The translations under genes and the position numbers were made by a program. This document shows, in pieces, positions 1-8,669 of a stretch of DNA of 46,127 nucleotides. Below the pieces are notes generated by a model that was not told where the DNA came from, searched no databases, and saw nothing but the letters and a program-made list of their open reading frames with translations. Numbering within the stretch: position 1 is the stretch's first letter; each line of letters starts with the position of its first letter. The stretch is from the sequence record SRR2962707_4349; one strand, 5' to 3'.

Positions 1-1614
1 GGCAATGGCGATGCGCTGGCGCTGGCCGCCAGATAGTTTAATACCGCGCTCGCCCACATAGGCTTTAAAGCCTTTGCGGCCTTTAGGGTCGCGCGCATCT
101 TGAATAAAATCATAGGCCTTGGCCTTGCGCGCCGCCTCTTCAATTTGTTCTTGCGTGGCATTGGTCGAACCATAGGCAATGTTATCGCCAATTGAGCGAT
201 GCAGCAGCGCCGGCTCTTGGCTGACCACACCAAATTGCGCCCTGAGCGAGGCCTGCGTGACTGTTTGAATATTTTGCCCATCAATCAGCATACGGCCAGA
301 CGTTGGTTCAAAAAGGCGCAAAATCAGCGCCACCATCGTGGATTTACCCGCGCCTGACGGGCCAACAATGCCAATTTTTTCGCCAGGCTTAATGTTCAAG
401 TTTAGCGCCTCAAAGAGCGCGACGTCTTCTTTGCCATAATTAAACGTCACATCTTCAAAAGTGATTTCGCCATCTGAATGGGTCAAAACGACCGCATCTG
501 GGCCGTCCTTAATCGCGGGATCAACTGAAATGGTTTCAACAGCATCCTGAACCGTAGAATAAGCCCGAATCAGGCCGTTGATGTTAAACATCATCCAAAC
601 CGACATCTGGTTGAGGCGGAACACCATGCCCATCGTCGCAGCAATAGAACCGGTCGTAATATTGCCGCTCATCCAACTTGAAATCGCGATAAAGCCAACG
701 GCGCTCATCATCGCACTATTGAGAACCGTGATCGCGACGCGAACAGTAGTAATCAGCCGCGTCAGATGGGTGACAGAACCCAGATATTTCGTAAAATTAT
801 CTTTGACATCGCCATATTCGCGATTGCCATTATCAAACAATTTCACGGTCAAAATATTAGTAAAAATATCGACCAGACGCCCGCTGATAACAGCGCGTTG
901 ATTGGCATTGTTTTTGCCCGCGGCGCGCAGCTTAGGCAGCAGAAAATGGATCAGCGCAAGATAAAGCACGCCCCAAATCGCGACCACTAAGCCCATGCGC
1001 CAATCAAGCGAAGACAGAACAGCGAAGGTCAAAAAGATAAACGTAATGAAGGACCACAGCCCCTGCAAAACCGTAACGATAAAATCGCCAACAGATTCGC
1101 CGGCTTGGCTAATTTTGGTCGCTATGCGGCCTGCAAAATCATCCTGATAAAAGGCATAGGGTTGGCGAATGATGCGCTGAAATGCTTGCCAACGCACCAT
1201 CGTGTAAAAACGCGGAACAATAATTTGTTGCTCAATGATCGCCGCAACACCAAGAATGATAGAGCGCCCGACGAGCAATAAAAGCAGCATGCCAACCAAC
1301 ACAGAGCCATGCTCTACCAGCAGCGTGGCCGGCGTTGCCTTGTCCAAAATATCAATCAGATAGCCGACCGACCAATAAAGCGCCGCATCAACACCGCCGA
1401 CAAATCCGCCAGCAATCAGAAGCGCGATGAATGGTATTTTCGCTTGTTGCGCAAAGTAGAGAATAAAACCCATCGCGGTTTTAGGCAGCACTTCGCGGTC
1501 CGTATCGGCAAACGGGTCGATAAAGCGCTCGAACCGGTTCCAAAAACGGTGATCCGTGTTGTGAAAGGTCGGATCTGGATCTGGCCTTAGCCCGCGTGGG
1601 TAAATAGAACTCAT
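1..1614 (-). CDS. ABC exporter, fused TMD-NBD (MsbA/multidrug type); 3' end runs off the window
   Basis: Not in the ORF track. Hand translation from ATG 1614 gives MSSIYPRGLRPDP...FWNRFERFIDPF, hydrophobic TM segments, Walker A GPSGAGKST and YVGERGIKLSGGQRQRIAIA at the window edge. GGAG SD lies in the tail of the upstream gene. Paralogous to the next gene. Confidence 0.93.
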   Translation of the reverse strand, partial: MSSIYPRGLRPDPDPTFHNTDHRFWNRFERFIDPFADTDREVLPKTAMGFILYFAQQAKIPFIALLIAGGFVGGVDAALYWSVGYLIDILDKATPATLLVEHGSVLVGMLLLLLVGRSIILGVAAIIEQQIIVPRFYTMVRWQAFQRIIRQPYAFYQDDFAGRIATKISQAGESVGDFIVTVLQGLWSFITFIFLTFAVLSSLDWRMGLVVAIWGVLYLALIHFLLPKLRAAGKNNANQRAVISGRLVDIFTNILTVKLFDNGNREYGDVKDNFTKYLGSVTHLTRLITTVRVAITVLNSAMMSAVGFIAISSWMSGNITTGSIAATMGMVFRLNQMSVWMMFNINGLIRAYSTVQDAVETISVDPAIKDGPDAVVLTHSDGEITFEDVTFNYGKEDVALFEALNLNIKPGEKIGIVGPSGAGKSTMVALILRLFEPTSGRMLIDGQNIQTVTQASLRAQFGVVSQEPALLHRSIGDNIAYGSTNATQEQIEEAARKAKAYDFIQDARDPKGRKGFKAYVGERGIKLSGGQRQRIAIA

Positions 1615-1621
1615 TTAATGC

Positions 1622-3484
1622 TTATTCTCCTGCGGCGTTCTGCATCATTTCGGCTTGCTCCAACCCAAGAAAACCACCGGATTGACGTGCCCATAATTGC
1701 GCGTAAAGGCCATTTGAATTGGACAATTCACCATGCGTCCCCTCTTCAATCACCTCACCGCGATCAAGCACGATCAGGCGATCAAGATTAGAGATGGTCG
1801 AAAGCCTGTGCGCAATTGCAATCACAGTTTTGCCTTCCATCAAAGCATCTAGGTTTTCCTGAATGGCGGACTCAACTTCCGAATCGAGCGCCGATGTTGC
1901 CTCATCTAAAACGAGAATTGGCGCATTTTTAAGGAACACGCGCGCAATCGCGATACGCTGGCGCTGACCACCAGATAATTTAACACCGCGTTCGCCCACA
2001 TGAGCATCATAGCCGGTGCGCCCTTGCAAGTCAGACAGACCCAAAATGTAGTCGTGGGCATTGGCACGTTTAGCGGCACGTATTACGTCTTCATCGGTCG
2101 CCGACGGATTACCATAGGCGATATTATCGCGCACAGAACGATGTAGCAAAGACGTATCCTGCGATACAACGCCAATTTGAGCACGCAGACTATCTTGCGT
2201 TACATCGCCAATGTCTTGTCCATCAATGCGCACCGCGCCGCCTTCAAGATCATAAAGGCGCAAAAGCACATTCATCAATGTGGATTTACCCGCGCCGGAG
2301 CGGCCAACAACACCCACTTTCTCGCCAGCTTTTACCGTCAGTGACAAATTATCGATCACGCCGGCATCTTTGCCATAGTGGAATTTGATCTTGTCAAAAA
2401 CGATTTCGCCATCAAAAACGACCAATTCTTTAGCGTTTGGCTTGTCGATAACAGTTTGATGTTTTGACAACATACGCATGCCATCTTCGGCCATACCGAT
2501 ATTTTCAAATAGACCGGCAAGCTCCCACATAACCCAATGGGCCATGCCTTCAAGGCGCATCACAAGACCCGCCGCAGCCGCAATCGCGCCCACAGAAGCC
2601 ATGCCCGTTTGCCAAGACCATATGCCAACACCGACAACACAAAACAGCAGCAGCGCATTGGAGACATCAAGACCAATGTTGAGCGAGCTGGCCAAACGCA
2701 TCTGCGGATGCACAGTACCCATAAATTCATCCATTGATTCGCGCGCATAGCCCTCTTCGCGCTGTGAATGCGCAAACAGCTTCACGGTCATAATGTTGGT
2801 ATAGCTATCGACAATGCGGCCTGTCATGCTCGACCGTGCGTTCGATTGACGCTCAGAGACTTCCCGCATTTTTGGCAAAAAATACCGCAGCAAAAATACA
2901 TAAAAGACCAACCAACCCAAAAAAGGCAGCATCAGCCAGATATCGAGCGAAGCAACCAGAATGAGCGTGCCAAGGAAGTAGACCAGCACATAAACCAACA
3001 CGTCGATAATTTTAGACACGGTTTCACGCACACCAAGCGCTGTCTGCATAACTTTTGTGGCAACACGGCCCGCAAATTCATCCTGATAAAAGCCAAAGCT
3101 TTGGCCCAGCATATAGCGGTGTGCTTTCCAGCGGATTTGCATCGGGAAATTGCCAAACAAAGTCTGGTGCATAATCAAAGTATGCAAAACGCCAAGCGCT
3201 GGAATGACCAGCAAAATGATCCCGCCCATCACAAAAAGCGACCAGAACTCATCTTGCAAAAATGTTGCGCGGTTAGCCGTTCCTAGCCAATCAACCAGAT
3301 TGCCTAAGAAGCCAAACAGCAAAACCTGCAGGCCCGCCACCAAGCCCGTAATTATCGACACAGCGGCAAACCAAGGCCAAATTGGCTTGGTATAAAACCA
3401 GCAGAACGCCCAAAGATTTTGCGGCGGCCGCTCCACAGCACTGGCTGGGAATGGATTAATGCGCTTTTCAAACCAACTAAACAT
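1622..3484 (-). CDS. ABC exporter, fused TMD-NBD (MsbA/multidrug type)
   Basis: Walker A GRSGAGKST, LSGGQ signature, Walker B ILVLDE, H-loop AHR, N-terminal TM helices. Start set to ATG 3484 (MFSWFEKR) after SD GAGGT. Confidence 0.95.
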   Translation of the reverse strand: MFSWFEKRINPFPASAVERPPQNLWAFCWFYTKPIWPWFAAVSIITGLVAGLQVLLFGFLGNLVDWLGTANRATFLQDEFWSLFVMGGIILLVIPALGVLHTLIMHQTLFGNFPMQIRWKAHRYMLGQSFGFYQDEFAGRVATKVMQTALGVRETVSKIIDVLVYVLVYFLGTLILVASLDIWLMLPFLGWLVFYVFLLRYFLPKMREVSERQSNARSSMTGRIVDSYTNIMTVKLFAHSQREEGYARESMDEFMGTVHPQMRLASSLNIGLDVSNALLLFCVVGVGIWSWQTGMASVGAIAAAAGLVMRLEGMAHWVMWELAGLFENIGMAEDGMRMLSKHQTVIDKPNAKELVVFDGEIVFDKIKFHYGKDAGVIDNLSLTVKAGEKVGVVGRSGAGKSTLMNVLLRLYDLEGGAVRIDGQDIGDVTQDSLRAQIGVVSQDTSLLHRSVRDNIAYGNPSATDEDVIRAAKRANAHDYILGLSDLQGRTGYDAHVGERGVKLSGGQRQRIAIARVFLKNAPILVLDEATSALDSEVESAIQENLDALMEGKTVIAIAHRLSTISNLDRLIVLDRGEVIEEGTHGELSNSNGLYAQLWARQSGGFLGLEQAEMMQNAAGE

Positions 3485-3758
3485 AACGTACCTCAATAAA
3501 CACAAAACTGGCGGAGGTCGGATAGACCCGTGCGCCAGATTTATGGCCTTCTATAGTTTGACAGGGATCGCTCACAAGATACGCGGGTGTTTCACCCTTC
3601 GCAGCAGGCGGACTTTCATTGCCAGAAATTAAATTAATTAGACCAACGAGCCGATAGATGAAAAAGCGAATAAACCTAGACCCAAGGTAATCGCCGAAAG
3701 ATGAATTAAACCGAATTATACTGAAATGCGCCAATAAGCGCAGAGAAATAATAGACAT
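3477..3758 (-). CDS. Putative upstream ORF (uORF2, 93 aa) overlapping the ABC exporter start
   Basis: ATG 3758, MSIISLRLLAHFSIIRFNSSFGDYLGSRF...GNESPPAAKGETPAYL...; TAG overlaps the exporter start by 8 nt; weak SD. Confidence 0.45.
   Translation of the reverse strand: MSIISLRLLAHFSIIRFNSSFGDYLGSRFIRFFIYRLVGLINLISGNESPPAAKGETPAYLVSDPCQTIEGHKSGARVYPTSASFVFIEVRYV
3498..3538 (-). terminator. Terminator/attenuator-like hairpin just before the ABC exporter RBS
   Basis: Minus strand CTGGCG-cac-GGGTC-tatcc-GACCT-c-CGCCAG followed by TTTTGTGTTT. Confidence 0.5.
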
Positions 3759-3823
3759 GACCGAAAATCCGTTTGGAAAACAAACTGGCGGTCAAAAGAA
3801 GAATATAAACTTGTAACCGCGTG

Positions 3824-3913
3824 CTAAGAAAGGGTCGCCACGGACCCAGGAATACCGACATCAGGCAGCATTCTGCCGAGTGGACGGATAATTACAAAAA
3901 ACAAATTGTGCAT
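3824..3913 (-). CDS. Putative leader peptide (uORF1, 29 aa) MHNLFFVIIRPLGRMLPDVGIPGSVATLS
   Basis: Strong SD (GGAGAGtaatATG), first ORF of the exporter leader region, carries two GC hairpins (3832-3847, 3864-3877). Confidence 0.6.
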   Translation of the reverse strand: MHNLFFVIIRPLGRMLPDVGIPGSVATLS

Positions 3914-3987
3914 ATTACTCTCCGTCGGTAAGCGTTGCGGTATGTTTCGAGTACGCCCGAAAAATTCTATTATCAAGTGACAACTCA

Positions 3988-4491
3988 ATGACAACAGAAG
4001 ACAAAACGGATTTGCGACAAATGGGCAACACTGGCCCCAACTGCCATATTGCGCTCTATCAGCCAGATATTGCGGGCAATACAGGCACGATTTTGCGCCT
4101 TGCCGCATGCATCGGTGCGCGGGTTCATATCATTGAACCGGCAGGCTTTGATCTCTCTGACCGCAATTTAAAACGCGCGGGCATGGACTATCTCGACATG
4201 GCCGCGCTGACGCGTCATTTGGATTGGGATGCCTTTTGTGAGTGGCGCATAGCCAACAACAAAAGGCTTGTGCTGCTGACGACCAAGACCGATCAGGTCT
4301 ACACAGACTTTAAATTTTCAAGCGATGATGTGCTGCTCTTTGGCCGCGAAAGCGCGGGCGTGCCGCAAAAGGTCCATGATCTATGCGACGAGCGCCTGAC
4401 GATCAAAATGCAGGAAGGTGCGCGTAGCTTAAACTTAGCGCTGTCGGTTGCGATGATTGCCGGTGAAGTTGTTCGCCAGCTGAGCGATTAA
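3988..4491 (+). CDS. trmL: tRNA (cytidine/uridine-2'-O)-methyltransferase TrmL
   Basis: SPOUT motifs LYQPDIAGNTG, RAGMDY, FGRESAG, RSLNL. Confidence 0.92.
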   Translation: MTTEDKTDLRQMGNTGPNCHIALYQPDIAGNTGTILRLAACIGARVHIIEPAGFDLSDRNLKRAGMDYLDMAALTRHLDWDAFCEWRIANNKRLVLLTTKTDQVYTDFKFSSDDVLLFGRESAGVPQKVHDLCDERLTIKMQEGARSLNLALSVAMIAGEVVRQLSD

Positions 4492-4494
4492 CAG

Positions 4495-4941
4495 CTAAAC
4501 CGCCATGCGCATGTCGCGGTGCTCAATACCCGCTTCAAAATAAGGCTCTGAGCAAACCATAAAACCAAGACGCTGGTAGAATCCAATGGCGCCCACTTGG
4601 CTGGAAAGGAAGAAGCTCTTGCCTACACTATCAGGCCGTTTGCGCAGGTCGTCCATCATGAAAGCCATGATTTTTGCGCCAATGCCCATGCCGCGGCCGG
4701 TTTGCAACACAGCAACGCGCTGGAATTTATATTTATCATCAATCAGTTGCACACGTGCAGTCGCGATCGGCACACCGTCCACTTCAGCCAGATAATGCAA
4801 ACAATCATCGTCTAGACCATCCAACTCAAGGTCAGTTGGCACGTTCTGTTCTTCAATAAACACGGTCTTTCGTATGGCAAGACACGCTTGTCTATCGTCC
4901 GCGCTACTTGCTTCGCGGCAGTGGATTTTATCGAACATCAT
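4495..4941 (-). CDS. GNAT acetyltransferase, ElaA/YjcF-like
   Basis: RKTVFIEEQNVP, RVAV..GRGMGIG acetyl-CoA motif, GFYQRLGF, EAGIEH. Confidence 0.88.
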   Translation of the reverse strand: MMFDKIHCREASSADDRQACLAIRKTVFIEEQNVPTDLELDGLDDDCLHYLAEVDGVPIATARVQLIDDKYKFQRVAVLQTGRGMGIGAKIMAFMMDDLRKRPDSVGKSFFLSSQVGAIGFYQRLGFMVCSEPYFEAGIEHRDMRMAV

Positions 4942-4945
4942 ATAT

Positions 4946-5380
4946 TTAGCCTAACGCAACCATCACCGCGCCTGTAGCAATTAGAGCCACGCCCGTCCAG
5001 CCGACGAGCGAAAGACTTTCGCCTAAGAAAAGCGCACCAAGTACGGCGACAAAAACGACACTTAATTTATCGACGGGCGCAACTTGCCCGACCTGACCCA
5101 TTTGTATGGCCTTAAAGTAACAAAGCCAAGAGGCACCCGTCGCCAATCCAGACAAAACGAGAAAAATCCATGTTTTTGTGCTGATGGAGCCAAGTGGTTC
5201 AAACTCATTGCGCGTCCATAAAATCGCGATCAAAGCGACAATAACGACGATCGTTCTAATAAAAGTCGCGTAATTGGAGCCAATGCCTTCAACGCCGATC
5301 TTAGCAAACAGGGCTGTAAATGCTGCAAAAACAGCCGCCAGCAATGCCCAAAATTGCCAATGTGAATAAAATGATGTCAA
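4946..5380 (-). CDS. EamA/DMT family small membrane protein
   Basis: About 5 TM helices, LSGLATGASWLCYF and VAPVDKLSV motifs; TTG start. Confidence 0.88.
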   Translation of the reverse strand: MTSFYSHWQFWALLAAVFAAFTALFAKIGVEGIGSNYATFIRTIVVIVALIAILWTRNEFEPLGSISTKTWIFLVLSGLATGASWLCYFKAIQMGQVGQVAPVDKLSVVFVAVLGALFLGESLSLVGWTGVALIATGAVMVALG

Positions 5381-5404
5381 AATCTATCAATCAGTGTTGG
5401 AATA

Positions 5405-5647
5405 TCAATCAGCTGTCGGCAATCGGCGCATTGTAAATTCAACGACATCGCCCTCGAGCAACCGCCAACTTTCGACCTGCGTCCAATAGGCAGCTTTAGG
5501 ATATTCAGTGAACCATTTCTTGGCAGTTTCGCGCGCTAAAACACGCTGCTGTCGATATGTTTCGCGGACAAAAGTATCTTCGTCAGCGATAAACCGGCCA
5601 CGCTCAAGCGAGGCAGAAAACCGGCTTCTGGGTACTCTAGGGGGCAT
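5405..5647 (-). CDS. Small hypothetical protein (80 aa)
   Basis: SD GGAGG before ATG; protein-like sequence ending FTMRRLPTAD. Confidence 0.8.
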   Translation of the reverse strand: MPPRVPRSRFSASLERGRFIADEDTFVRETYRQQRVLARETAKKWFTEYPKAAYWTQVESWRLLEGDVVEFTMRRLPTAD

Positions 5648-5837
5648 GGGAAACCTCCAACTAGGTGTTGCGCACGATTCTTAATGAATAGCCTAGACCC
5701 AAAAACAGAAAGATGACAATCGGTTTTTTGTGCACTAACCAATTCCCTTTGCGTGTAAGCTCTTAAAAAGGTTGGCAAGTGCGATACGCGGGTTTAGCAA
5801 TCATAGTTGAATTGAGCCAAAATAGGACACTTGAGTA

Positions 5838-6752
5838 ATGCGAGACAGAGCGAATCTTCCAAAAGGACTGCCTGCGGACATCGAAGAAAAAAAGGCAAAA
5901 GCAGAAGCTTGGTTCGCTGCAATTCGCGACCGCATCTGTTCCGAATTTGAAAAATTGGAAGATGAACTGGCAGGACCGTTTACTGAATATGCGCCAGGCC
6001 GATTCGAAAAAACACCTTGGCTGCGCGATGAAGGCAACGGCGGCGGTGGCACCATGTCTATGATGAGTGGCCGCGTTTTTGAAAAAGTCGGCGTGCACAC
6101 CTCAACGGTTCACGGCGAGTTTTCGCCAGAGTTTCGCAAACAAATGCCGGGCGCAGACGAAGACCCACGCTTTTGGGCATCTGGCCTTTCAATCATCGCT
6201 CACCCACAAAATCCAAATGTGCCTGCAGTGCACATGAATACGCGCATGGTTGTCACATCATCTTGCTGGTTTGGCGGCGGTGCGGATTTAACGCCAGTGC
6301 TCGATAGACGCCGCACGCAAGACGATCCTGACACAATCGCTTTCCACAAAAGCTTTGAACTGGCTTGCAATAAACATGATGTTGCAGACTACGCCGGTTT
6401 CAAAAACTGGTGCGACGAATATTTTTATCTCGCCCATCGCAATGAGCCACGCGGCACAGGCGGCATTTTCTACGACTGGCAACATTCTGAAGAAGAACAA
6501 GGCGGCTGGGATGCCGATTTTGCTTTTACGCAAGATGTTGGCCGCACATTTTCGATTGTTTATCCCTATCTCGTGCGCAAGAATTTCAACACAAATTGGA
6601 CCGATGCTGACCGCGAAGAGCAGTTAATCCGTCGTGGCCGCTATGTTGAATTCAACCTGCTCTATGATCGCGGGACGATTTTCGGTCTGAAAACCGGCGG
6701 AAACGTCAATTCAATACTATCGTCCATGCCGCCAGCTGTTAAATGGCCTTAG
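5838..6752 (+). CDS. hemF: Oxygen-dependent coproporphyrinogen III oxidase
   Basis: [39 protein letters not shown] motifs. Confidence 0.97.
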
Positions 6753-7225
6753 GCTATACATTAGCGCAATTACTTGCGCAGTTTCCACGCGCCGGGAGAG
6801 TTGAATGGATCGGCGTTAGGCCTGAGCGCAGGTCGAGCATGTTAGCGCTCGATAATGTGCTGATTAGCGACATTGGCCTTGCTGGCGACCACAGAACACG
6901 CGCTGGACCACGTGCGGTCACGCTCATCCAAGCAGAACATTTGCCTGCTATCGCATCATTGGCAGGGCTTAGCGTTGTCGCGCCAGATCAACTGCGCCGC
7001 AATTTTGTAGTGTCGGGCCTCAATCTATTAGCGCTCAAAGACAAGCAATTCCGCATCGGCACAGCAATTCTGCAAGGCACAGGCATTTGTGCGCCTTGTT
7101 CACGCATGGAAGAAGAGCTCGGACAAGGCGGATATAACGCGGTGCGCGGCCATGGCGGCATTACGGCGCAAGTGATCAGCGAAGGCGCTGTTTCGCTTGG
7201 CGATGAAATCAGTTTCATAAAATAA
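6743..7225 (+). CDS. MOSC domain protein (YiiM-like)
   Basis: [33 protein letters not shown] motifs; overlaps the hemF stop by 10 nt. Confidence 0.85.
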
Positions 7226-7297
7226 AACACGGGATCGCGCACAAAAAGCCCCACGTGGCGCAAATCACCTATAGAGTGAATGTCAAAGGAGCCCATC

Positions 7298-7453
7298 ATG
7301 GCCATTCGATTTGAAAAAAAATCTGACGACGATCACTCTGTCGTAAAAAAAGCAAAAAACGAAGAAAGCAAAAAATCTTCGACTACAATTGACACTGACA
7401 CCTATGCCAGCCTTCAAAAAGCTGAAAAGAAGCCGAAAAAAGAGCGCTTCTAG
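7298..7453 (+). CDS. Small Lys-rich protein, 51 aa (MAIRFEKKSDDDHSVVKKAKNEESKKSSTTIDTDTYASLQKAEKKPKKERF)
   Basis: SD AAGGAG at 7286-7291; open frame fills the gap and stops 7 nt before the convergent cca stop. Confidence 0.7.
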   Translation: MAIRFEKKSDDDHSVVKKAKNEESKKSSTTIDTDTYASLQKAEKKPKKERF

Positions 7454-7460
7454 AACCTAG

Positions 7461-8669
7461 TCATTTCAACTGCTTCAGCAGCGCGTCCCGCGTCATCTGA
7501 AAATCGCTTTCGACCCAAACCTTTTCCATTGATTTAAGGGCTGCGCCAAGCGCTGGCCCTTTTTCATAACCAAGGTCGAGCAAATCTGCGCCGCGCACAG
7601 GCAATTCAGGCATATCCCAAGCCGCTAAAATGGCCGCATGATCGGCAAGCTTGTCATCGCGCTGCAAGGCTGCTTGCACATGCAAAGCGTCCATAACCGC
7701 AGATTTAGAGTGGCGATAGGAAAGCGCACGCAGGGCGTTGTCGTCTTTGGGCAATTGCGCGGAAAGCGCCGACCATGCCCGTAGCCGATCTCGCTCTGCA
7801 TTCGACATTTTCCAGCGCTTGGCGATATCATTGACCGTGTCGACACGCGGCGGAATAATCGCCATTAAACGCACCATGCCATCGGCTTTCCAGCCGTGTT
7901 TGCGTTCGGCTTCCATCAATGGCGAAATCGCATCAATGCCCCATTTTTCACTTTCGGGGAGCAGCAGCGTTAACACACCGATCTGGCGCATCCAAAGCAA
8001 AGCGCGAGAAGGGTCAGGGGCGGCAAATATTTTCGCCATTTCATTCCAAATCCGCTCGGCAGAAAGCGCAGTCATGCCGTCTTTCAGCCGTGCGCAGGCT
8101 TTTAAACCTTCTGCATCCGGGCGATGCTGGCCATAATAGGCAAAGAAACGAAAGAAGCGCAAAATACGTAAATAATCTTCTTCAATGCGCGCGCCCGCAT
8201 CGCCAATGAAGCGAAGCAGCTTGGGCTCAATGTCTTTTAACCCATCAACATAGTCATAAACTGCGCCTTCACGGTCCACATAAAGCGCATTGACGGTAAA
8301 GTCGCGGCGATGGGCGTCAGCCTCAAAATCTGTGCCAAACGATACCACCGCATGACGACCATCGGTCTCAACATCAAGGCGAAGCGTTGTAATCTCAAAA
8401 TTTTGGCCATCAAGAAGCGCCGTCACCGTGCCATGATCAATGCCCGTTGGGATCGCTTTTATGCCAGCATCGTTCAATCTTTGAATTACGACTTCGGGCA
8501 CAAGCGTTGTCGCAAAATCAAGATCGCTGGCCCCTGCCTTCATCAAATAATTGCGCACAGCGCCGCCAACAATGCGTGCTTCGCCGCCATCGGCTTCCAG
8601 CACGTCAAAAAGACGTTGCACAGTTGCATTTGTGAGCCACTCCGGCGAAATCTTCAAATCTGTTTTCAC
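7461..8669 (-). CDS. cca: CCA tRNA nucleotidyltransferase
   Basis: VGGAVRN..DLDFAT, EITTLR, RRDFTVNAL, EDYLRILRFFRF; GTG start overlaps the upstream stop. Confidence 0.93.
   Translation of the reverse strand: MKTDLKISPEWLTNATVQRLFDVLEADGGEARIVGGAVRNYLMKAGASDLDFATTLVPEVVIQRLNDAGIKAIPTGIDHGTVTALLDGQNFEITTLRLDVETDGRHAVVSFGTDFEADAHRRDFTVNALYVDREGAVYDYVDGLKDIEPKLLRFIGDAGARIEEDYLRILRFFRFFAYYGQHRPDAEGLKACARLKDGMTALSAERIWNEMAKIFAAPDPSRALLWMRQIGVLTLLLPESEKWGIDAISPLMEAERKHGWKADGMVRLMAIIPPRVDTVNDIAKRWKMSNAERDRLRAWSALSAQLPKDDNALRALSYRHSKSAVMDALHVQAALQRDDKLADHAAILAAWDMPELPVRGADLLDLGYEKGPALGAALKSMEKVWVESDFQMTRDALLKQLK

Follow-up and report, generated by a model that had tools for sequence, protein, structure and literature searches.

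The leader of a tandem ABC exporter operon in the 46,127-nucleotide (nt) stretch of DNA analysed here (sequence record SRR2962707_4349, hereafter the window) is, on comparison with related loci, a conserved and unannotated element that travels with the operon. It lies on the minus strand and holds two upstream open reading frames (ORFs), uORF1 and uORF2, together with short RNA segments, designated a to d, with the potential to pair with one another (Table 1). Its layout suggests that it is probably a ribosome-sensing switch. We read it tentatively, and with a confidence slightly short of an even chance, as a ribosome-dependent attenuator of the exporter operon in which the two ORFs have different jobs. 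Judged from the comparisons below, support for the leader being real is good, while support for any particular mechanism or signal is weak.

Spread of the leader

The comparison set consists of 80 loci with the exporter, obtained from one genome scan; the species that the window comes from is missing from this set. The closest exporters, 70-77% identical, are those of Ahrensia marina, Oricola, Oceaniradius, Roseitalea and several metagenome-assembled genomes (MAGs). Most of the results below refer to a set of 12 leaders, namely that of the window and those of 11 loci (L066, L001-L005, L009 and L014-L017), which belong to A. marina, Oricola, Oceaniradius, Roseitalea and MAGs. Among cultured strains the leader is carried by A. 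marina, three Oricola species, Oceaniradius stylonematis and Roseitalea, and is directly testable because several such strains carry it. A 50-nt block of the window (3796-3747) is 92% identical to A. marina at the DNA level, and nhmmer aligned the first half of the leader with an E value of 8.6e-11.

In 18 of the 80 loci, a divergently oriented gene for a TrmL-like methyltransferase lies next upstream. Locus L066 has kept the leader although its upstream neighbour is not the TrmL-like gene. Since the upstream neighbour in A. marina is a different gene, the leader belongs to the exporter and not to the methyltransferase.

Rfam searches yielded no family for the element. For window positions 3300-4200 there were only two matches, one scoring 15.9 bits where the cut-off is 126 and one 9.6 bits where it is 90, and the leaders of five relatives gave no match at E values up to 1. 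A covariance model (R1) run over 615 kb of loci recovered only the 12 training sites; four weaker matches (E 0.12-0.73) were disregarded, being located inside or after coding regions. The exporters of two Ahrensia MAGs (L010 and L024) are preceded by other genes and lack a leader of this kind.

Table 1. Features of the exporter leader and its surroundings (positions in the window)
Feature	Position	Strand	Description and basis
Segment a	3931..3941	-	Conserved ACCGC-type block 18-28 nt upstream of the uORF1 ATG; similar block in Oricola, L006 and L066
Shine-Dalgarno-like GGAGAG of uORF1	3918..3923	-	4 nt before the ATG; 4/6 against AGGAGG
uORF1, proposed sensor (leader-peptide) ORF	3824..3913	-	29 codons and stop; length kept in 12/12 leaders
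Segment b	3815..3826	-	uORF1 stop and GCGGT(T) block 3 nt past it; invariant columns, RNAalifold pairing with c
Two-tier c:d hairpin	3756..3794	-	3' arm (d) 3763-3756 with the uORF2 ATG; inner stem-loop 3788-3769
Segment c	3787..3793	-	Invariant GACCGCC, complementary to b and d; alignment, RNAalifold
uORF2, proposed relay ORF	3477..3758	-	93 codons, ending over the exporter start; frame open in 12/12 leaders
Terminator-like hairpin	3496..3545	-	Core 3538-3508, U-rich tail 3507-3496; in the last uORF2 codons
Shine-Dalgarno GAGG of exporter A	3491..3494	-	AGAGG or GAGG similarly placed in relatives
ABC exporter A	1622..3484	-	620 amino acids; transmembrane and ATPase half-transporter; Pfam, NCBIfam (all below cut-off), PDB
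ABC exporter B	1..1614	-	Truncated by the window end, 7 nt past exporter A; ORF list, Pfam
SpoU/TrmL-like methyltransferase gene	3988..4491	+	Divergent, outside the element; Pfam, NCBIfam
Intergenic region			503 nt between the divergent methyltransferase gene 3988-4491 (+) and the exporter A start; ORF list, Pfam

uORF1, the putative sensor

Read upstream, the uORF1 frame stays open as far as an ATG at 4108 within the divergent gene. Two points favour the start at 3913: a GGAG-type Shine-Dalgarno (SD) sequence precedes it at 3923-3918, and the relatives have the same start. All 12 leaders provide uORF1 with its own ribosome-binding site (RBS) and ATG. The SD of uORF1, described as strong in the original prediction for this stretch, is indeed present, but the wording was generous for the window, where it matches AGGAGG at only 4/6 positions as against 5-6/6 in the 11 relatives.

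The length of uORF1 is 28-29 codons in all 12 leaders. Between any two of the window, L066 and L001, 56-59 of the 87 nt differ, and all three have 29 codons. In shuffled sequences a length of 28-29 codons arises with a chance of about 0.026 per lineage (0.024-0.029 per leader), a figure that cannot simply be multiplied over the lineages because these are related. The stop codon of uORF1 lies 3-7 nt upstream of the GCGGT block in all 12 leaders, so that the footprint of a ribosome at the stop would reach this segment. With its fixed length, its SD and a stop placed this close to a conserved segment of the putative switch, uORF1 looks like a leader-peptide ORF. Two leader peptides had been predicted; the description fits the first, while the second ORF is unrelated between genera and ranges from 44 to 103 codons.

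Short ATG-initiated ORFs with an SD match of at least 5/6 were detected in 14 of 67 scanned loci, every one alphaproteobacterial; 4 further loci of the 67 gave unrelated matches of 8-16 codons. No ORF of the uORF1 type was found in roughly 40 gammaproteobacterial orthologue loci. Shorter versions with a strong SD occur in L006 (27 codons) and in L013 and L019 (17 codons). The latter two, with a perfect SD, are similar to each other and lie 93-153 nt upstream of the exporter start; in L019 the leader stop codon is spanned by a 9-bp hairpin, as judged by eye. Four other loci (L018, L020, L022 and L023) carry versions of 20-21 codons with an AGGGAG-type SD and an Arg-Val-Ala sequence, placed 110-180 nt before the exporter start. 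In these loci uORF2 is absent, and the downstream hairpins are different, one of them standing directly before the exporter RBS. Judged from this group, the sensor ORF seems to predate the expression platform. Four Roseibium loci (L011, L012, L078 and L079) have no short leader ORF of the uORF1 type.

Over 19 uORF1 peptides Met1 is the sole invariant residue, and the N-terminal consensus, aliphatic residues followed by Arg-Val-Ala, is loose. The window peptide shares only this general pattern with its relatives, and peptide-level conservation of uORF1 is therefore marginal. When the Oricola group is compared with the L018-L023 group over the first 12 codons, nonsynonymous divergence (dN) is 0.3-0.75 and synonymous divergence (dS) is at least 0.9 and reaches saturation; the differences in the Arg, Val and Ala codons between the two groups are synonymous. 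No residue run of the kind that the regulatory-amino-acid codons of trp-, his- or leu-type leaders would give is shared by the 19 peptides. No Pfam family corresponds to uORF1, and the hydrophobicity of its peptides is too low for a membrane span. Judged by eye, 10 of the 12 leaders have proline as codon 20 or 22, and in 6 of these 10 Gly and an aliphatic residue precede it; ribosomes might pause at this proline, some 7-9 codons short of the stop.

Conserved pairing segments

In the alignment of the 12 leaders (216-229 nt), the invariant columns cluster in three blocks, GCGGT, G.CCGCC.GTTT and CG..CATG, and the ATG of the last, which belongs to segment d, is the start of uORF2. The consensus fold returned by RNAalifold is the b:c stem, with 9 pairs. 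The alternative c:d hairpin reaches -14.1 kcal/mol in the window (z = -3.7; 0/200 shuffles as stable). From genus to genus its inner stem changes in length and in the sequence of the loop, yet the pairing is kept. The outer stem carries a double change from A-U to G-C in L001, and in the Oceaniradius group it is shifted to a perfect 7-bp helix. Pair counting over c:d found 89.6% of cells paired, versus 30-47% for slid partners. Because only one pair is compensatory, the support for the pairing segments consists of invariance and stability and not of covariation. A U-rich run comes after the b:c stem in Oricola-type leaders; in GC-rich relatives c:d has no U-tract.

An extended version of the c-block motif is unique in the 46-kb window, and in the other loci it is confined to this leader position bar one match in L010. 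That match (27-40, minus strand) was set aside as chance, since it lies inside a coding region, by eye that of a sugar-binding transcription-regulator-like protein. Also dropped was a second GACC..GCC-like stretch before the exporter SD, present in the window and L002/L009 and not kept in L001/L004.

Folding of the free segment between the uORF1 stop and the uORF2 ATG places the b:c stem in the minimum-free-energy (MFE) structure of 7 of the 12 leaders. If the first 16 nt from the stop are blocked, in imitation of a terminating ribosome, c:d forms in all 12. In the window the two states are nearly equal in energy, -14.2 kcal/mol for b:c and -14.1 kcal/mol for c:d. The uORF2 ATG is unpaired or in a loop in the free b:c fold of the window, L066, L001 and L004.

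A ribosome on uORF1 was simulated with 30 nt of 5' flank, by placing a ribosome-sized block at codons 5, 10, 15 or 21 or at the stop and folding at equilibrium. With the stop blocked, the probability of an unpaired uORF2 start, here called its openness, fell by 0.1 or more in 5 of the 12 leaders (L066, L001, L003, L005 and L009) and by a smaller amount in L002 and L017. A further putative helix, P1, in which segment a would pair with b and enclose uORF1, is present in the MFE structures of the window, L002 and L014. P1 has at least 7 expected pairs in 8 of the 12 leaders, yet 4-9 of 60 flank shuffles equal that; measured by pair-probability mass, the predicted helix is no more than suggestive. 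By duplex energy it was no better than shuffles (fraction 0.01-0.87). A small hairpin at the end of uORF1 (3847-3832) is at chance level (-8.1 kcal/mol, z = -1.4; 17/200 shuffles as stable).

uORF2, the putative relay

The stop codon of uORF2 overlaps codons 2-3 of exporter A, whose ATG is at 3484. In all 12 leaders the uORF2 frame, read from its invariant ATG, reaches to 20 nt or less from the exporter start without a stop; the other two frames of the region are open in 3/12 and 2/12. Among dinucleotide shuffles the frame stays open in 104/5000 (2.1%) for the window and 31/5000 (0.6%) for L066, whereas in GC-rich relatives, with 34-86% of shuffles open, openness is uninformative. Relative to the exporter ATG, uORF2 ends at +7 in the window, at +16 in 8 loci and at -9 to -12 in L005, L066 and L017.

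The uORF2 peptide of the window found no database match at E values up to 1 among 5.8 billion clusters, nor did it match the uORF2 peptides or upstream ORFs of the other loci; those of the others match within genus-level groups only. A tblastn search of both peptides, as the original prediction had advised, and of an overlapping ORF of 51 amino acids against the 80 loci gave nothing significant, the best E value (0.018) reflecting the conserved nucleotide block. The comparison fits a frame selected for translation through to the exporter start and not for its product. Both uORFs, the overlap of uORF2 with the exporter start and a Ser-Pro-Pro motif had been foreseen and are present; the motif was set aside, since the relatives do not share it.

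The last codons of uORF2 in the window coincide with the terminator-like hairpin that had likewise been predicted before the exporter RBS, with its U-rich tail. Its existence is confirmed: the core, 3538-3508, folds at -22.1 kcal/mol (z = -5.4; 0/200 shuffles as stable), and an A-rich stretch lies directly 5' of it. A terminator scan reported 2 terminator-like sites, versus 1.7 in shuffles.

The four Roseibium loci have, from about 430-530 nt upstream of the exporter start (locus position about 3001), an ORF for a protein of 143-155 amino acids with two hydrophobic stretches. Its end, at +7 or +16, runs over the exporter start in a frame relation identical to that of uORF2. The four proteins are 27-73% identical to one another (E 2.5e-68 to 6e-10). 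The Roseibium protein is a candidate accessory subunit or a candidate ancestor of uORF2, and uORF2 may have arisen as a degenerate protein.

Proposed mechanism

The conserved anatomy of the leader is observed; from it we infer the co-transcription of the leader with the exporter genes, the direction of the switch, the coupling between its parts and the signal. In the proposed scheme uORF1 would be the sensor, segments b, c and d the transducer, and uORF2 a relay into the exporter start. In the OFF state, a ribosome that reaches the uORF1 stop would cover b, whereupon c:d would close over the uORF2 start. In the ON state, a ribosome held within uORF1 would leave b free to capture c, and the uORF2 start would be opened. 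Translation of uORF2 would then carry ribosomes over the remaining 160-320 nt, which in the window include the terminator-like hairpin at 3538-3508. There, uORF2 translation might keep the hairpin from forming and so act by anti-termination. Since uORF2 ends atop the exporter start, both transcription and translation of the exporter are proposed to depend on uORF2 translation.

Candidate signals would be a ribosome-targeting compound, or a substrate of the pump acting on the nascent uORF1 peptide. In its most explicit form, the proposal is that of a two-stage relay attenuator common to a group of marine Hyphomicrobiales, in which a uORF1 of fixed length senses a ribosome-targeting compound or pump substrate by nascent-chain pausing and a four-segment switch thereby frees the uORF2 start. 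We regard this explicit form as possible but rather doubtful. If the sole job of uORF2 were to carry ribosomes through the leader and terminator, as the two-stage relay supposes, its sequence would be free to drift.

Weighing the proposal and its alternatives

A number of results weigh against the attenuator proposal. Over its full length uORF1 has no coding-type substitution pattern (dN/dS 0.4-1.4), and its variable sites are spread over the three codon positions as 19/18/18 and 11/11/13, without third-position excess. The amino-acid constraint on uORF1 is weak and limited to the first 12 codons of some lineages. A check of amino-acid-level conservation had been suggested with the original prediction; its outcome is marginal for uORF1, where conservation shows over those first codons only, and negative for the uORF2 peptide. 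The SD of uORF2 is only a weak SD-like GGA. Compensatory changes are found in 1/16 pairs of c:d, which does not exceed the shuffle controls (220-250/500), and in none of b:c. The invariance and stability of the segments would also be expected from a site acting at the DNA level. A scan found no promoter-like site between 3913 and 3987. Antibiotics had been named as a signal; nothing in the analysis points there, and this claim is not supported.

The folding tests add to these points. In the free RNA the uORF2 start is partly paired with the stop-codon region in L002, L005 and L009. With a block at uORF1 codons 5-21, the gain in openness of the uORF2 start was at most 0.06 in each of the 12 leaders, and in the window openness is 0.29-0.30 in every simulated state. 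Blocking the stop left 5 of the 12 unchanged, the window included. In the MFE structures of the longer context, c:d is closed in all states in the window, L002 and L014, with segment a holding b. The whole leader of 491 nt is not unusually stable (z = -0.89). Equilibrium folding reproduces no clean switch and, as modelled, neither confirms nor excludes one; a kinetic, co-transcriptional mechanism would be required. Overall, the predicted interpretation as a ribosome-sensing switch finds partial support.

Of the alternatives, the one to be taken most seriously, although unlikely, is a pure transcription attenuator of the type described for bmrB (see below). Here uORF2 would be the leader ORF, its internal hairpin would be decisive and the ribosomes within it would set read-through, while uORF1 and b/c/d would only tune uORF2 initiation or form a separate layer. 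A very stable hairpin with a U-rich tail does stand in the 3' part of uORF2, at a distance of 12-50 nt from the exporter ATG; the bmrBCD terminator likewise lies inside a small ORF adjoining the exporter (PMC4191407), and in Oricola-type leaders the b:c stem itself precedes the U-rich run. However, this hairpin is not conserved: no unusually stable fold precedes the exporter RBS in 7 relatives (z from -0.30 to +1.14), which also counts against the main proposal. Moreover, conservation in the leader resides in uORF1 and b/c/d and not in uORF2, and the U-tract is missing after c:d in GC-rich relatives. An improbable alternative makes uORF2 a fast-evolving small protein, perhaps a membrane partner, translationally coupled to the exporter in the way that the two-span Roseibium protein appears to be, with uORF1 leading a three-gene operon. 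It would accommodate the Roseibium ORFs, which are conserved in four loci and have hydrophobic stretches (Kyte-Doolittle 19-residue maximum 2.4-2.9), the hydrophobic stretches in uORF2 of L017 (2.57) and in the corresponding ORF of L006 (2.41), and a dN/dS of 0.3-0.76 for uORF2 within groups. It fares badly with the window uORF2, which has no relative in the searches reported above and a hydrophobic maximum of 1.22, below that of a membrane span; the Oricola and Oceaniradius uORF2 have no membrane-like stretch either, and the spread in length is wide.

Little probability is also given to the view that the invariant blocks are DNA sites, a promoter and a transcription-factor operator, inside a leader whose uORFs are translated incidentally or never. 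The blocks are invariant and do not covary, the c and d arms form a DNA palindrome that the double change in L001 preserves too, and the scan recognised no promoter upstream of uORF1. Yet three to four mutually complementary segments 25-120 nt apart are atypical for an operator, and the variation of the inner stem and its loop while pairing stays is hard to reconcile with one. The fixed length of uORF1, its strong SD and the fixed distance from its stop to b are inexplicable at the DNA level, as is the openness of uORF2. Finally, uORF1 might encode a small functional peptide (a signal, a bacteriocin-like substrate or a pump subunit) and not be a regulatory ORF, which we consider very improbable. 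Its presence and length are conserved beside the exporter, with some N-terminal amino-acid constraint, but Met1 alone is invariant and dN/dS is near 1 over the full length. No hydrophobic span, double-glycine leader or cysteine pattern was recognised by eye, and the exporters have no peptidase domain (Pfam). The original prediction had offered the peptides as substrates or partners of the pumps; this finds no support in the window, uORF1 being too little hydrophobic and uORF2 having no relatives.

Relation to known systems

In the translational attenuation of erm, cat and cmlA genes, a short leader ORF with a strong SD is followed by a hairpin over the next start, and the position of the ribosome sets the alternative pairing. 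The leader described here has a similar layout, with a strong-SD leader ORF, a hairpin that would occlude the next start and a putative alternative pairing. It differs in that the occluded start would be that of the relay ORF and not that of the regulated gene, and no known arrest motif was identified. In trp-type attenuators the leader stop lies directly before segment 2, and pairings 1:2 and 3:4 alternate with 2:3. A ribosome terminating at the leader stop would mask the second segment, here b, in the same way. Here, in contrast to the trp type, there is no regulatory codon run, segment a lies upstream of the leader SD and not within the ORF, and the equivalent of 3:4 has no following U-tract in most relatives.

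Most of what has been worked out on the control of ABC exporters by leader peptides comes, to our knowledge, from bmrBCD, a Firmicute system. In Bacillus subtilis, a small ORF adjoins the heterodimeric ABC exporter of this operon and contains alternative stem-loops and a terminator; this ORF has to be translated if ribosome-targeting antibiotics are to induce the operon (Reilman et al. 2014, PMC4191407). The closest described system is bmrBCD. Both have a small ORF directly before an ABC exporter, and the terminator within that ORF has a counterpart in the terminator-like hairpin of the window, which is not conserved in the 7 relatives. The bmrBCD operon has one leader ORF, whereas there are two here, a conserved sensor-like ORF being set apart by the non-conserved uORF2; the conserved hairpin here holds a start codon rather than forming a terminator, and the host is alphaproteobacterial.

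Two other uORFs may be compared. A 2026 study of predicted upstream RBSs in Sinorhizobium meliloti describes a uORF that overlaps the start of the main ORF and affects its translation; the example is a 57-nt leader before the gene for an ABC transporter ATP-binding protein, in which a single uORF begins 5 nt from the main ATG (PMC13285730). This is again an alphaproteobacterial uORF overlapping the start of the main ORF, as uORF2 does here; that leader has neither a long relay ORF nor a conserved set of hairpins. The toiL uORF of the Escherichia coli topAI-yjhQ operon is a regulatory uORF that senses stalled ribosomes (PMC12121999); its gene set differs from the exporter operon discussed here.

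Full-text literature searches found no published description of this leader. If the proposal is true, the same logic arose in another lineage with a different layout, made of a separate sensor ORF and a sequence-free relay ORF. A conserved alphaproteobacterial leader would help to establish which signals these uncharacterised exporters respond to, and would add a leader family missed by annotation pipelines and Rfam.

Exporter genes and neighbours

Exporters A and B both have the Pfam domains ABC_membrane and ABC_tran, and comparison with PDB structures shows resemblance to ABCB1, Sav1866 and MsbA, with type IV exporter domains. All curated NCBIfam models for such exporters (SmdAB, Tet(46), MsbA and others) scored below cut-off, the best at 347.6 bits against 733. 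Since no NCBIfam model reaches its cut-off, the term multidrug describes the fold and not a demonstrated function. The exporter A start at the ATG at 3484 is favoured over an upstream TTG at 3505 because the relatives align from residue 1.

The TrmL model is the best NCBIfam match to the SpoU-family gene at 3988-4491 (+), below the curated cut-off (131.6 versus 190.6 bits). There are no tRNA genes in the whole 46-kb window. The G+C content of the leader is 40-45%, versus about 50% in its surroundings. The stretch from 4495 to 8669 holds ordinary chromosomal-looking genes, with a GNAT acetyltransferase-like ORF and ORFs of 144, 304, 160 and 402 amino acids.

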